This document shows positions 4,560 through 57,841 of a stretch of 64,000 nucleotides of DNA, piece by piece. Both the position numbers and the translations under genes were made by a program. A model generated the notes under the pieces. It ran no database searches and was not told the origin of the DNA. It worked only from the letters and a program-made list of their open reading frames with translations. Numbering within the stretch: the stretch's first letter is position 1; each line of letters opens with the position of its first letter. Source of the stretch: Eledone cirrhosa (lineage: Eukaryota); the NCBI GenBank assembly GCA_964016885.1, contig OZ024741.1:296670001-296734000 (forward strand), written 5' to 3'.

Positions 4560-5872
4560 AACATCACAACCACACACACCAGGGCGCATCACAACATAAC
4601 ATTTATAAGCCTAAATTTCAGCCCATACATAACAACATACAAAACCGCAACGGAGAACCTGCACACAGGAAGGCCTCCAACTGTAACTGCCACCTGCCGG
4701 ATAAGTGCCCACTACAAAATAGATGCCTGGAATCAAGCATGGTGTACCTGTGTACTATAAATTCGGGGAACTTAACATATAGGTTCCACGGCTGGGGAAT
4801 TAAAAAAAAGATGGTACGTTCACAGACACTCTATGTAGAAGCGTAGACTAGAGAACTCAACAACGCTGGCCAATAAAATCTGGCAGCTTAAGGACACAAA
4901 CCAGGAATATGGAATTAGCTGGTCGAAATTATCGGTAGCAAGGGCCTACAACAACGGAATGTCCCACTGCGGACTTTTGCAATATGGAGCTATTCCATAT
5001 TTTAACGTACAAGTTGCTGCTTAACAGCAAAATAGAACGACGAATGTTCTGTAGGTACAAAGCAGTTACCAAGTTCACAAATTTCAAACCAACATGATTC
5101 GACCCAGCAATCTCAAAATTCGAGCTGAACCACCCGAATTTTAATGTACTGACTACATACCACCCCACTGTTATTAGTTGTCAACTGACCAACTGGTCAC
5201 TAGATCAATATCATAAATCTCCTAACCTTTCTTTCACTCTCTCTCCCTAAAGCCACACCATCCCCATTAAGATAAGACAATCAGCATGGTAGACATTTTC
5301 CACACACACATATATCAAAACTCTCCATCTCAGTTCTTATCCTCCATCTACCTATCTACTCATTCCCCATCCTTAGCCCTACCCATTATGTCACATCATC
5401 GTATCTCTTACCGTCTCACTTAATTTTTAATATATTATTTTTTATCTTTTATCTGTCGTTTGTTATTATGTTTTATTTTCTACTCTAACCCTCTGAGATC
5501 TGACCACCACGTATATATGTATGTATTTGATGTTGCTCTTCATGTTAATATTTGTAGTTGCTCTTCATGTTAGTATTATCTTTACACATACACTTACTCA
5601 CTACCACCACTATTATCAGCAATTGCATTCTAAACTTTTTTTTTTTAAACTTATTTTTTACATCTGTACCATCTTCATTACCTCTTTATCATTATCTTTT
5701 ATTATTGATGTTATTTGATTCTCCGTTGTATCTCTATATATACCAATGCCATATGTAAAACCTCCAGTATTCCGATGATTTGATCAGAGGTAAACACTGT
5801 ATTTAAGGTCGAGTGACGCAACTTCGAGTGATTAGCGGCCTTTAGACTCACCTGATCAATGAAACAATTGTT
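4560..5872 (+). mobile_element. Decayed Penelope-like GIY-YIG region with 3' pLTR
   Basis: From about 4682 it translates as CNCHLPDKCPLQNRCLESSMVYLCTI..KRWYVHRHS..STTLANKIWQLKD..ISW, with frameshifts and stops. Homologous to 15188-15763. Confidence 0.75.
5765..5872 (+). ncRNA. Degenerate hammerhead at the 3' end of the decayed Penelope copy
   Basis: CCGATGA-[TTGATCAG...CTGATCAA]-GAAA-CAATTG-TT, then (TA)n. Confidence 0.45.
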
Positions 5873-6049
5873 TATATATATATATATATATATATATATA
5901 TATATATATATATATATATATATATGTGTTGGAGGTGAGTTTTATTGTAGCACAATAAAGCAATGCAAATATCGGTTAAGTAGCACTCTACAGTTTGTAG
6001 GACGAGTATAAATAATATAAGATCAAAAGATGGTTAAAAGAGTTCCAAG

Positions 6050-6120
6050 TATTTTATTATGCGCATTTCAAAAACAAATGTCATCATGGGATGATATCTG
6101 CGTTTTCATCAGATAAAATA
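6050..6120 (-). ncRNA. Type I minimal hammerhead ribozyme, intact core
   Basis: TATTTTAT-CTGATGA-[stem II AAACGCAGATATCATC/GATGACATTTGTTTTT]-GAAA-TGCGCA-TA-ATAAAATA. Stem I has 8 perfect pairs, stem III is palindromic, cleavage triplet AUA. Confidence 0.85.
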
Positions 6121-6199
6121 GGGATACATGATATGAAGCTTAAAAAACACTTGTGAATAGTGTTTTAAATCAACATATGTTGATTTAAAACTTCACTAT

Positions 6200-9100
6200 T
6201 CACATATATATATATATATATATATATACGTATATATATATATATATATATATATATATATATATACGTATATATATATATATACGTATATATATATATA
6301 TATACATATATATATATATGTGTATACATATATATATATATATATATGTATACATATATATATAGGTATACATATATATATATATATGTATACATATATA
6401 TATATATATATATATGTGTATACATATATATATATATATATATGTATACACATATATATATATATATATATATATGTATACATATATATATATATGTATA
6501 TATATATATATGTATATATATATATATATATATAGTATATATATATATATATATATATGTATACATATATATATATATATATGTATACATATATATATAT
6601 ATATATGTATACACATATATATATATATATATATGTGTGTATACATATATATATATATATATATATGTATATATATGTATACATATATATATATATATAT
6701 ATATATATATGTGTGTATACATATATATATATATATATATATATATATATATATATATATATATATATATATATATGTATATATATGTATACATATATAT
6801 ATGTATATATATGTATACATATATATATGTATATATATGTATACATATATATATGTATATATATGTATACATATATATATATATATATATGTATACATAT
6901 ATATATATATATATATATATGTATATATATATGTATATATATATATACATATATATATATATATATATATATATATAAATATATACGTATATATATATAT
7001 ATACGTATATATATATGTATATATATATATATACGTATATATATATATATATATATATATATATACGTATATATATATATATACGTATATATATATATAT
7101 ACATATATATATATATGTGTATACATATATATATATATATATATGTATACATATATATATAGGTATACATATATATATATATATGTATACATATATATAT
7201 ATATATATATATATGTATACACACATATATATATATATATATATATATATATGTATACATATATATATATATGTATATATATATATATATATATATATGT
7301 ATATATATATATATATATATAGTATATATATATATATATATATATATGTATACATATATACATATATATATATATATGTATACATATATATATATATATA
7401 TATATATATATATATATGTATATATATGTATACATATATATATATATATATATATGTATATATATGTATACACATATATATATATATATATATATATATA
7501 TGTATATATATGTATACATATATATATATATATATGTATATATATGTATACATATATATATATATATATATATATATATATATATATATATATATATATA
7601 TATGTATATATATGTATACATATATATATATATATATGTATATATATGTATACATATATATATGTATATATATGTATACATATATATATATATATATGTA
7701 TATATATATATGTATACATATATATATGTATATATATGTATACATATATATATATATATATGTATATATATATATGTATACATATATATATGTATATATA
7801 TGTATACATATATATATGTATATATATGTATACATATATATATATATATATGTATATATATGTATATATATATATATATATATATGTATATATATGTATA
7901 TATATATGTATATATATGTATATATATGTATATATATATGTATATATATGTATATATATATATATGTATATATATGTATACATATATATATGTATATATA
8001 TGTATATGTATATATATGTATACATATATATATGTATATATATATGTGTGTGTATATATATATATATATATATGTGTGTATATATATATATATATATATA
8101 TATGTGTATATATATATATATATATGTGTGTGTATATATATATATATATATATATATATATATATATATGTGTGTATATATATATATATATATATATGTG
8201 TGTATATATATATATATATATATATGTGTGTATATATATATATATATATATATATGTGTATATATATATATATATGTGTGTATATATATATATATATATA
8301 TATATATATATATATATATATGTGTATATATATATATATATATATGTGTATATATATATATATATGTGTGTATATATATGTATATATATATATATATATA
8401 TATGTGTATATATATATATATATGTATATATATATATATATATATATGTATACATATATATATATATATATGTATACATATATATATATATATATACATA
8501 TATATATATATATATATATATATGTATACATATATATATATATATATATATGTATGCATATATATATATATATATATATATATGTATACATATATATATA
8601 TATATATATATATATATATATATGTATACATATATATATATATATATATATATATATATATATATATATATATATATATGTGTGTATATATATATATATG
8701 TGTATATATATATATATATATATGTGTATATATATATATATATATGTGTATATATATATATATATGTGTATATATATATATATATATATATGTGTGTATA
8801 TATATATATATATATATGTGTATATATATATATATGTATATATATATATATATATATATATATATGTGTATATATATATATATATATATATATATATATA
8901 TATATATATATATATGTTGTATATATATATATATATATATATATGTATATATATATATATATGTATATATATATATATATATATGTATATATATATATAT
9001 ATATGTATATATATATATATATGTATATATATATATATATATGTATATATATATATATATATATGTATATATATATGTATATATATATGTATATATATAT

Positions 9101-56180: not shown

Positions 56181-56276
56181 GACATATTACAATCGTTTCT
56201 CTGGCGACCAGCTCGAGGCACGATCGATGTGATGATCGAACCTGACTCTGAAAATCGCAAGGTCCTCAGATACGTC
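56181..56276 (-). ncRNA. Hammerhead ribozyme with long stem II, intact core
   Basis: GACGTAT-CTGAGGA-[CCTTGCGATT...GGTCGCCAGA]-GAAA-CGATTG-TA-ATATGTC. 7-bp stem I, cleavage triplet GUA. Confidence 0.7.
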
Positions 56277-56769
56277 TTATTGTAATATGTTCAATAAATT
56301 CCATTCGTCGCAACACTGATTCTCTTTTTTTCTGTGATATATATATATATATTAAAATTAGAACCTAACCGATTATGTATATTGTTATACTTTGGGAGGG
56401 TCATGCCGCCAATAAAAACACGCGCAACTGTTGAATTTCACTTCAATTTATTATAAACTCCCAGTCGGTTAGTTGAATAACCAGATGGTTGTTTAGTTGT
56501 TGATTGCCAAAGTTCTTTCGTCACATATTCTGTCACCTACTTAGTGACTACTTTTGTTATGTCTCTCCTTTGTTTGTGCTACATCACCTTGTTTTTGTGA
56601 GCTGTGTATTATATATATATATATATATATATATATATATATATATATATATATATATATGTGTGTGTGTGTGTGTGTAGGAGGTGAGTTTTATTGTAGT
56701 ACAATAAAGCAATGCAAATATTATATATATATATATATATATATATATATATATATATATATATATATA

Positions 56770-57562
56770 TATATATCATAAATCATGTCCTTAGAATTAT
56801 TAGATAAAATATATACCATTTCCTCTCCCAATTAGCATAATTAACCATATAAAAAATCAATTAGACCAAGCTATAAGAAGAAAGGCTCTTATGAAGAAAT
56901 CTCCGACAAATAACCGAAAGTGGCCTCTTCGCGGTGGCCCCAATAGAGTATTTATCCAACATTTCGACAGCATGCAGAAACTGACCAAATATACCATCAA
57001 CCATACACAATTAGGTGTAAATTCAAACTTAGAAGAAATGTGTACATACCGTAATTATCTCTACCATGGTTTCATCCGTATTTTTAGACATCCAATTAAT
57101 AGGAATGTCTTGAGTTAGGATTCATCAGGAGACAAACTCAAAATTAGACATTTAGTTTTCCAACGTGATCGCGCCAAAATTAGATTAAAAAATGGCTAAG
57201 AATCGCAATGTGGCTGTGGTCAAGCTAGAAAGAATGTGATTGGTTGCTTACGGCGGGTAGGCTTGTTGCTAGAAAGCGCAGCCAAATATCGCCAAATTGT
57301 ATCTCAACCTAACGGGAGATTATTAAATATAAAGGTTTACATATACATAAAGTTATAGATATATATGTTGCAACCGGCCACTTTTAAGCTCTATGAAGAA
57401 TTAATAAATTAAATAATCAGAGCAATATATCATAAATCATGTCCTTAGAATTATTAGATAAAATATATACCATTTCCTCTCCCAATTAGCATAATTAACC
57501 ATATAAAAAATCAATTAGACCAAGCTATAAGAAGAAAGGCTCTTATGAAGAAATCTCCGACA
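56770..57562 (-). mobile_element. ORF-less hammerhead-bearing element: 654-bp unit plus an approximately 135-bp direct terminal repeat
   Basis: 56776-56908 is repeated at 57430-57562 (offset 654). Hammerhead at 57055-57135. Both ends lie in (TA)n. Confidence 0.75.
57055..57135 (-). ncRNA. Type I hammerhead ribozyme, intact core
   Basis: TTGTCTC-CTGATGA-[ATCC..AGACATTCC/GGATGTCT..GGAT]-GAAA-CCATGG-TA-GAGATAA. Cleavage triplet GUA. Confidence 0.85.
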
Positions 57563-57779
57563 TATATATATACAAGAAGGTAGTACAGCATAATCGAAGC
57601 TCTGGTTGTGGGCAAGCTAAAGAATGCTGTCGGGAAGTGCAGCCAAAAGCACTCAATAAGGAATTTTACCTTAGAGTTATATATATATATATATATATAT
57701 ATATATATATATATATATATATATATATATATACACAATGATATTAAATAAATGGAAACTATATTTATAAAACCATATT

Positions 57780-57841
57780 TATTCTATTATATATATTTCA
57801 AGAGTACCAAAAACTTTGGTACGCTTTCATCAAATAAAATA
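57780..57841 (-). ncRNA. Hammerhead ribozyme, C3U-mutated core
   Basis: TATTTTAT-TTGATGA-[AAGCGTACCAAA/TTTGGTACTCTT]-GAAA-TATATA-TA-ATAGAATA. Same family as 10671. Confidence 0.65.

Follow-up and report, generated by a model that had tools for sequence, protein, structure and literature searches.

Candidate hammerhead folds in an Eledone cirrhosa window probably mark Hydra-clade Penelope-like elements and two protein-less tandem repeats

The window, by which we mean the whole 64-kb stretch of Eledone cirrhosa DNA analyzed, contained all ten hammerhead motifs claimed by the original prediction. These corresponded to nine insertions of nine families, the motifs at 10459 and 10671 being the two arms of a single palindrome. 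A type-I descriptor matched six times in the window, whereas 50 local dinucleotide shuffles averaged 0.0 matches (maximum 0); two window motifs passed the strictest descriptor (shuffle mean 0.01), and homology to genomic family members recovered ten of ten. The type-I core, the NUH triplet and three helices were present in the sequence at 6050, 10459, 10671, 56181 and 57055, and only at the family level for 28933, 31582 and 57780. Exceptions to the core rules were the NUG of the 14888 subfamily and the U4C of the 5765 family. Covariation had been proposed as a check, and stem II did covary in 24 A-type sequences, mutually related and preselected by a pairing descriptor: seven of nine pairs changed on both sides, a score reached by none of 500 shuffles. 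The original view of minimal type-I hammerheads with a palindromic stem III, of Penelope-type origin and in a (TA)n context, was upheld. In targeted Rfam scans of the regions around 6050 and 57055, no hammerhead model appeared at E ≤10, nor did one among the matches listed for the whole window (150 of 322).

Motif density was compared with the genome in 80 evenly spaced 10-kb stretches, where 33 strict motifs were found per 800 kb. The one motif per 6 kb put forward for the window exceeded this sampled mean, which was about one per 24 kb with the strict descriptor and one per 18 kb by homology; with 6 strict motifs in 64 kb, the probability of a stretch this rich was about 0.11. From the 800-kb sample, the strict motifs of the whole genome were estimated at about 120,000.

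Five of the families can be described together. The family F hammerhead (5766..5872, +; core CCGAUGA, stem III CAATTG, GUU triplet) ends at the predicted cut site in the window copy, and the inverted outer arm with the tail occupies 4293..4442 (-; 84% to the F reference beyond the hammerhead). A broken Hydra GIY-YIG endonuclease remnant of the same insertion, absent from the original prediction, lies at 4631..4979 (+; tblastn E 1e-12 to 7e-15), and this layout was repeated in at least six other family F loci. The motif had been listed as decayed, which held only for stem I, whose 3' strand is missing in this copy alone; CCGAUGA was typical (12 of 15 copies). Family B is represented by a 5'-truncated copy with a short inverted arm and a full tail (5926..6203, -), a hammerhead at 6050-6120 (-; stem III TGCGCA) and an inner hairpin at ~5982-6007, as well as by an isolated tail end (56675..56721, -; 96% to 5926-5972). 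Family A forms a head-to-head palindrome (10416..10865) with arms 95% identical, hammerheads at 10459-10525 (-, inner end) and 10670-10737 (+, outer end), and an inner hairpin at 10786-10808. The family G 3' end (14800..14962, -) carries a hammerhead at 14888-14948 with stem III CCACTGG and a GUG triplet. This 7-nt stem III and the triplet were common to 18 of 20 near-identical copies; hence they represent a fixed subfamily state and not the decay originally assumed. The body of the G copy is a 5'-truncated, frame-split Hydra-clade ORF (15191..16978, -; RT 15947-16978, GIY-YIG 15191-15847), the translation of which was 41% identical to the intact family A protein (E 2e-71). Family C is a palindromic copy (56069..56340, -) with a hammerhead at 56181-56275 and stem III CGATTG.

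Judged by sequence, the motifs at 5765, 6050, 10459/10671, 14888 and 56181 are assigned to the 3' termini of Hydra-clade Penelope-like elements (PLEs) that carry an ORF. Genomic searches, each scoring only the best 40 candidates, returned 2628 candidates for family F, 832 for B, 643 for A, 1321 for G and 1816 for C. A full family A element was found at one locus (L219), where an intact 737-aa RT/GIY-YIG ORF lies between two family A hammerheads; many A copies were 100% identical over 254 bp, and the family is apparently young. All 15 family B read-through loci entered a Hydra ORF, the family C tail continued into the start of a Hydra ORF at two loci (L100 and L216), and the endonuclease was found upstream of the hammerhead in genomic copies of G and F. 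The single ORF, an RT with a C-terminal GIY-YIG, was thus intact for A and recovered in pieces for B, C, F and G. Atlas neighbours bore GIY-YIG and RVT_1; the ORFs themselves went unrecognised in Pfam and in PDB sequence searches. The translations contained DKT, RWR/RWT, a CxCx5C linker and, around E and N, CxxC and CxH, but no CCHH (SDKT, RIRWR, CNCRDRSKC, CDLC and CKH in A; SDKT, CSCRKPDEC, CSLC and CPH in G), in agreement with the published description of the Hydra clade, to which they were assigned from these motifs and from visual resemblance to the published Hydra-1_Obim protein rather than from a tree. The pLTR hammerhead, the (TA)n insertion and the inverted arm with a one-sided tail were likewise found in these ORF-linked families.

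Families D and E were different, consisting of ORF-less, head-to-tail units of the retrozyme type. Family D occupies 56776..57566 (-) with 1.2 copies, head to tail, of a 655-bp unit whose longest stop-free stretch is 57 codons; its hammerhead lies at 57055-57135 (-; stem III CCATGG), the inner hairpin at ~57388-57425 and the outer at ~57299-57324. The monomer, computationally folded as a circle, was more stable than 40 shuffles (z -3.4). Family E is a 5'-truncated copy (28792..29045, -) of a unit with a period of 859-883 bp (~870). Its hammerhead (28933-29020), originally listed as complete, turned out to be a decayed one, the commonest stem III of the family being CTCGAG. The genomic searches gave 4442 candidates for D, at 96-99% identity, and 2847 for E. 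An alternative is that D and E are not independently mobilised units: they would be fragments of pLTRs, from autonomous elements that escaped the searches, made tandem in DNA by unequal crossover. Tandemisation at the DNA level has been discussed for vertebrate retrozymes (Li, Clavereau and Pollet, 2026; bioRxiv 10.64898/2026.07.22.740005), and since only 40 candidates were scored, either family might have an ORF-bearing parent that went unseen. Nevertheless, the D copies were dispersed, nearly identical, no longer than about two units in the loci read, and had RT-type ends with inverted arms; a Hydra ORF was touched by none of 20 D read-throughs, and no Hydra protein match, the only ORF check made, was found at 20 of 20 E 5'-end loci. 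We therefore regard this alternative as quite improbable. D and E share the hairpin pair at their copy ends and hence were likely moved by a Hydra-clade enzyme.

The two remaining families were decayed in the window, as originally listed. The family H copy (31535..31750, -; 710 candidates) has lost one A of GAAA in its hammerhead (31582-31667) and appears, from its sequence, to be an internally deleted Hydra element with an ORF stub and the 3' end. Family A' is a palindromic remnant (57734..57990; 1794 candidates) with the tail on the + strand and a C3>U change in the hammerhead (57780-57841, -), and no ORF link was seen in 19 of 19 loci with 1.5-kb flanks. The latter motif was 82% identical to the 10459/10671 arms, so the stem II sequences, described as unrelated in all ten, are not so for 57780 or for the 10459/10671 pair.

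According to the original prediction, most of the ten motifs were ORF-less ribozyme retroelements that relied on the element at 14800-16980 for mobilisation in trans. Eight of the nine window insertions are indeed short or ORF-less at the hammerhead, and the D and E units, the mere ORF stub of H and the lack of an ORF around A' agree with such a view. The ORF-less part of the claim stood for 57055 and 28933 and failed for five of the nine families (six of the ten motifs): F, B, A, G and C are continuous with Hydra ORFs in other genomic copies, being the 3' fragments of autonomous Penelope elements that the prediction itself had named as the contrary case, and mobilisation in trans is largely refuted for them. 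Furthermore, the supposed helper has lost the 5' part of its ORF, the remainder of which (15191-16978) is spread across two frames, and 14888 is the 3' hammerhead of this very copy; hence, this element is not the helper, and the explanation as a whole is highly improbable. Longer genomic copies of short (TA)n hammerhead elements should be checked before these are called non-autonomous.

The 3' ends of the copies were bimodal, at +58 (26) and +145 (31) in family A, +51 (21) and about +150 to 157 in B, +56 (13) and +135 (18) in C, and +292 (18) and +396 (3) in D, in which 18 of 20 read-throughs stopped at the two fixed sites. Among 95 head-to-head pairs, 84 had one inner and one outer end and one had two outer ends; these loci were mostly top matches of queries that included a single tail, which preselected one arm in the majority of pairs, and more than one pair came from each of four loci. 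The arms of one palindrome shared copy-specific variants and diverged less within than between copies (1.7 vs. 6.8% in A, 2.8 vs. 4.4% in B and 5.0 vs. 7.3% in C). Short family B palindromes could also be a non-autonomous subfamily propagated from a fixed palindromic master; their centres varied and no arm-specific variants were inherited except for the junction base, so such a master is unsupported. Few 5' ends lay at the hammerhead cut site (1/22, 2/27 and 1/17), and templates cut at the hammerhead were rejected in these small samples for want of a pile-up there.

Each fixed end immediately preceded a hairpin of the form NCTC-loop-GAGN', which was common to the ORF-less families. It was present at 11 of 14 hand-placed sites, compared with a background of 2.1%, and its first pair varied (A-U, G-C, U-A). 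The three sites without it were the F inner site, the window G subfamily and one scanned E copy; other E copies do carry it. Families F and G have spread to many copies despite such sites, an observation that counts against a role of the hairpin. The second (outer) hairpin of family B was predicted beforehand and found, with 274 genomic matches, to a pattern that required CTC..GAG and in which continuations without a hairpin could not show. The outer hairpin was missing from most inserted copies.

We consider it likely that the hammerhead folds lie at the 3' ends of Hydra-clade PLEs and of two protein-less tandem repeats, all probably inserted by a Hydra RT-endonuclease. This enzyme is predicted to initiate cDNA synthesis at two positions, immediately upstream of the conserved hairpin in each case. 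The enzyme would cut (TA)n on both strands, and each target DNA end would prime a cDNA, one at the inner and one at the outer hairpin. Both cDNAs would usually end after 150-300 nt and then be joined head to head, giving short hammerhead-bearing palindromes with a tail of 80-105 nt on one arm. As the outer hairpin would not be copied, the full signal would be restored only by a tandem junction; D and E retain both hairpins and are probably mobilised in trans. The hammerhead is predicted to cleave only as a dimer (computed dimer helix III of -10.5 kcal/mol in B, -11.2 in D and only -3.2 in A) and is likely dispensable for insertion.

The hairpins could instead be endonuclease or resolution signals in DNA (cDNA or target), with the tail arising from the resolution of a longer intermediate. 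The tail has been ascribed to EN-mediated resolution (Craig et al., 2021; PMC8557442) and is required for EN recognition in the Penelope of D. virilis (PMC11167929), and the genomic ends look the same whether the hairpins act in RNA or in DNA. Nevertheless, the RT start sites of a Poseidon element in vitro coincide with genomic tail ends (PMC11167929), and the absence of the outer hairpin from most copies is expected if it lies 3' of an RT start site, so that action in DNA seems unlikely. Returning to two RT start sites, a bolder proposal, to which we give about an even chance, is that Hydra-clade retrotransposition would need nothing in cis beyond the tandem hairpin pair. The RT-endonuclease, acting as a dimer, would bind both hairpins and begin a cDNA at each of them, using the two DNA ends of a broken (TA)n tract; this would set the tail length, explain why only tandem copies transpose again and admit any RNA with both hairpins, for example a 655-nt circle of family D. 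The outcome would be a genome with >100,000 hammerheads, which may be the highest density known for an animal.

Hydra-clade PLEs with hammerheads and (TA)n targeting are a published class. EN+ members including Hydra-1_Obim share with the Eledone elements the RT with a C-terminal GIY-YIG, the DKT, RWK-like and CxCx5C motifs, the 3' hammerhead with a palindromic stem III, the (TA)n insertion and the inverted 5'-truncated arm with a one-sided tail (Craig et al., 2021; PMC8557442). Eledone adds at least six further ORF-linked Hydra lineages to those described there, a longer unit (~4.0 kb in family A vs. <3 kb) and longer tails (80-105 vs. 30-40 nt); the available sections of that paper mention neither paired hairpins nor ORF-less passengers of Hydra elements. 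In the Poseidon element PAc, two RT start sites are used, both strands are cut and extended, and the hammerhead is dispensable in vitro (Frangieh et al., 2024; PMC11167929). PAc resembles the Eledone families in its two internal start sites defining the tail and its AT-rich targets, and the proposed mechanism in that both target strands are cut and extended with uncut RNA as the template. In PAc, however, the start lies in an AC-rich stem-loop that is part of the ORF, whereas the Eledone ends are found before the ORF, where a single hairpin motif occurs twice and each copy has an end at its 5' foot.

As in Eledone, minimal PLE hammerheads have the type-I fold and a palindromic helix III; one genome contains many families of them, chiefly as single motifs from truncated PLEs, and pairs on opposite strands lie 100-700 bp apart (Cervera and de la Peña, 2014; PMC4209133). 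Those of Eledone have a longer stem I (5-9 bp), a stem II of up to 95 nt and mostly lack G10.1-C11.1; their estimated ~120,000 compares with 2,000-9,000 in the genomes quoted there, with different descriptors. Metazoan non-LTR retrozymes resemble D and E: they are low-GC, head-to-tail units that lack an ORF, contain a single type-I hammerhead and have been proposed to depend on PLEs (PMC7229834; 10.64898/2026.07.22.740005). The 655- and ~870-bp units exceed the 170-400 nt of Cervera and de la Peña (2020; PMC7229834), and the retrozyme range reaches 972 bp (Li, Clavereau and Pollet, 2026). D and E, known here from DNA alone, have PLE-type hammerheads and, unlike the published retrozymes, are linked to the Hydra clade by their ends and hairpins. 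Neither the Eledone families nor the paired hairpin was found in the literature searched, although Repbase/Dfam, subscription papers and bioRxiv supplements may hold these families; the main text of a 2026 octopus repeat paper mentions neither ribozymes nor hammerheads.

These results bear on the choice of start sites by PLEs, the need for tandem copies and the enzyme that moves animal retrozymes. With an apparently young family with an intact ORF, two ORF-less passengers and a shared short hairpin, all three questions could be addressed in one in vitro assay.

Additionally, a CUGAUGA at 27115, part of a tRNA-like SINE tail, and the CUGAGGA copies of a 76-bp array (18645-22424) were discarded as hammerheads for lack of a GAAA partner, and the matches listed from the Rfam scans were only microsatellite-driven miRNA noise. 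A second, older family D insertion, absent from the original prediction, was found at 34132..34544; it is palindromic, truncated inside the hammerhead and 82-83% identical.

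All ten hammerhead motifs of the original prediction were found at their positions in the window, and homology to genomic relatives recovered 10/10. The observation of ten motifs stands; as separate items they reduced to nine insertions, because those at 10459 and 10671 form one palindrome. The strictest type-I descriptor was passed by two motifs (6050 and 57055; shuffle mean 0.01), and a mismatch-tolerant one by six (core positions 6112, 10516, 10679, 14939, 56269 and 57128; 0 in 50 local shuffles). Rfam models gave no hammerhead match among the whole-window matches listed or in targeted scans. 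Covariation, one of the checks that the original prediction proposed, was seen as compensatory change in stem II: in 24 distinct A-type sequences (A being the family of 10459/10671), 96.5% of cells paired and 7/9 pairs changed on both sides (0/500 shuffles, no slid register near), a result that is supportive and not a probability, the set being preselected for pairing and related. In the family of 5765 (F), one copy (L145:1500-1650) carried a double stem II change, C-G to G-C, with pairing kept.

The 3' ends of the copies were bimodal relative to the predicted cut: +58/+145 in A, +51/about +150 in B (6050), +56/+135 in C (56181) and +292/+396 in D (57055), positions blurred by several bases through (TA)n overlap. 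Among 95 head-to-head pairs, 84 joined an inner to an outer end; two inner ends met in 3, two outer ends in 1, and 7 were of other kinds, a count in which the query usually preselected one arm and four loci were counted more than once. Non-majority variants common to both arms of one copy were present at 88 (A), 39 (B) and 16 (C) sites, and in all three families the arms diverged less within one copy than between different copies. Since arms share these copy-specific variants and the sole recurrent arm-specific difference lies at the (TA)n junction, each insertion likely made its palindrome afresh out of a single type of source RNA. Such a route is consistent with the biochemistry reported for a Poseidon element in vitro, where cutting and extension took place on both strands, the tail (the stretch between the two ends, on one arm) was defined by two internal RT starts and the main template was uncut RNA (PMC11167929). 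Hammerhead pairs on opposite strands, and single motifs derived from truncated Penelope-like elements (PLEs), were known in 2014 (PMC4209133), and an inverted arm with a one-sided tail in 2021 (PMC8557442). In families B, A and A' (57780), 5' truncation and fold-back points clustered at short local hairpins or palindromes that lay 55-90 nt 5' of the hammerhead core (e.g., window 6170-6182 and 10590-10606), so that many copies resemble fixed short elements.

Genome searches were performed per family, counting first-look candidates and scoring the best 40 in each: 832 candidates for B, 643 for A, 1816 for C, 1321 for G (14888), 2628 for F, 4442 for D, 2847 for E (28933), 710 for H (31582) and 1794 for A'. 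The original prediction had taken most motifs for ORF-less families. This held for two of the nine (D and E being ORF-less) and perhaps for three or four; the rest were ends of a known class, with ORF links elsewhere. Family A extended at least 1.5 kb upstream in 6/30 loci, reaching the endonuclease C-terminus, and one locus (L219) held a whole element of about 4.0 kb: a hammerhead terminal repeat, an intact 737-aa ORF, a 1.5 kb AT-rich UTR and a second hammerhead. The ORF of Hydra, a PLE clade, was entered in 15/15 family B loci reading through the tail, and the tail led to the ORF start in one C locus. The G hammerhead was the 3' end belonging to the window's own ORF, a close by-eye match to Hydra-1_Obim; this match, together with the repeat landscape, points to a probable octopus host. 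Several F loci had an endonuclease 650-1000 bp upstream, as did the window (4631-4979). Tail, ORF stub and 3' end of H were joined in L162, a junction that L161 and L168 repeated (at least 3/15 loci). The ORFs bear the Hydra marks given by Craig et al. (PMC8557442). Pfam and PDB sequence searches with them gave no recognition; Atlas neighbours carried GIY-YIG and RVT_1. In one chimera (L060, upstream of 1501, oriented), a pyrimidine tract marked the join between a B-like endonuclease and UTR and the 3' end of family A, which suggests that 3' modules were swapped between Hydra families.

Family D was a 655-bp unit whose longest stop-free stretch was at most 57 codons, and an ORF was reached in 0/20 read-through places (about 13 insertions). 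Family E, a unit of 859-883 bp starting after a previous 3' end in most loci, gave a Hydra protein match in 0/20 loci. For A', an ORF was present in 0/19 loci (1.5 kb flanks).

Directly 3' of the inner end, a hairpin RCTC-loop-GAGYRC was shared by the A types, B, C, E, H, the older G type and two flank families, otherwise unrelated in sequence. A second copy lay just past the outer end in A and C, and both hairpins were present in D and E. The motif occurred at 11/14 hand-placed sites vs 2.1% of random 15-nt windows; it was not found at the F inner site, in the G subfamily of the window, which still folds a 10-bp stem there, or in one E copy. A hairpin predicted past the B outer end, absent from the loci compared before, gave 274 genomic matches with a pattern able to find hairpin-bearing continuations only, and 98 of the 100 listed shared one continuation with GCTC..GAG and then the ORF start. 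A dimeric enzyme would use these hairpins as its start signals. The D inner hairpin (window 57388-57425; GCTCTG..CATAGAGC) is similar to the one in the older G subfamily (L128, near 2950), as D stem III (CCATGG) is to that of G (CCACTGG); both likenesses hint that the G lineage might be the parent or helper of D.

Hammerhead dimers are reportedly the subject of a paper by Lunse et al. The 6-nt palindromic stem III would close poorly in a monomer and would form an 8-bp helix in the dimer (computed energies: B -10.5, D -11.2, A -3.2 kcal/mol), as already described for PLE hammerheads (PMC4209133). Family G carried a GUG triplet, with G at position 17 in 20/20 loci, and F the core substitution U4C. 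Under established hammerhead rules both should impair cleavage. As these subfamilies spread despite them and few copy 5' ends lie at the predicted cut site, cleavage seems, from the copies themselves, dispensable for insertion. In a single case, at window 5872, an F copy stopped exactly at the predicted cut site, adjoining a B insertion; the loss could have been caused by the neighbouring insertion. The GUG subfamily with an altered inner hairpin (window 14888-14948, L122-L140) was amplified (best 40 scored copies 97-99%), and many of its copies ran on for >1 kb of low-complexity sequence without stopping at the two sites. The older G subfamily in the flanks kept GUA and the normal hairpin.

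In eighty evenly spaced 10-kb stretches (800 kb) of the 3.0 Gb genome, 33 strict motifs were counted (18 and 15 per half), about 1 per 24 kb, giving an estimate of ~124,000 genome-wide (bootstrap 71,000-187,000); ten shuffles of the first half yielded 0-1 motifs. Given this density, the window's six strict motifs have P ~0.11. Counting by homology gave 44 motifs per 800 kb, an undercount where a family was absent from the query set. At least twelve hammerhead families absent from the window were seen (L048, L058, L078, L105, L115, L181, L189, L205, L261, L262, L270, L279), all with a (near-)palindromic stem III of 6-7 nt. Published counts, obtained with descriptors differing from the present one, are about 9,000 for the minimal motifs of Xenopus tropicalis (PMC4209133), over 6,000 motifs for one coral and, for the retrozyme copies of axolotl, as many as 120,000 (PMC7229834), the axolotl genome being 28 Gb (Li, Clavereau and Pollet 2026, bioRxiv 10.64898/2026.07.22.740005). 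Relative to the published descriptions compared here, the new features are the family set, a genomic count that is very high, the strict rule of one inner plus one outer end, and the hairpin pair common to autonomous and ORF-less families.

Additionally, a degenerate (TA)n tract of 4.2 kb (6204-10416) lay between the B insertion and the A insertion. Non-LTR RT fragments, all of them broken and by eye CR1-like and RTE-like, were present at 11202-13040 (-), with a (TA)n tract interrupting this one at 13069, and at 31934-34038 (-), 49242-49877 (-) and 51209-51625 (-). Minisatellite arrays had units of 76 bp (18645-22424; the unit contains CUGAGGA and no hammerhead), 25 bp (39839-42100) and 48 bp (43623-48678). 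The tail of a tRNA-like SINE at 27090-27340 (-) held CUGAUGAG without a GAAA partner, and a copy related to the 126-bp near-perfect hairpin repeat at 28459-28584 lay at the beginning of the window (326-626).
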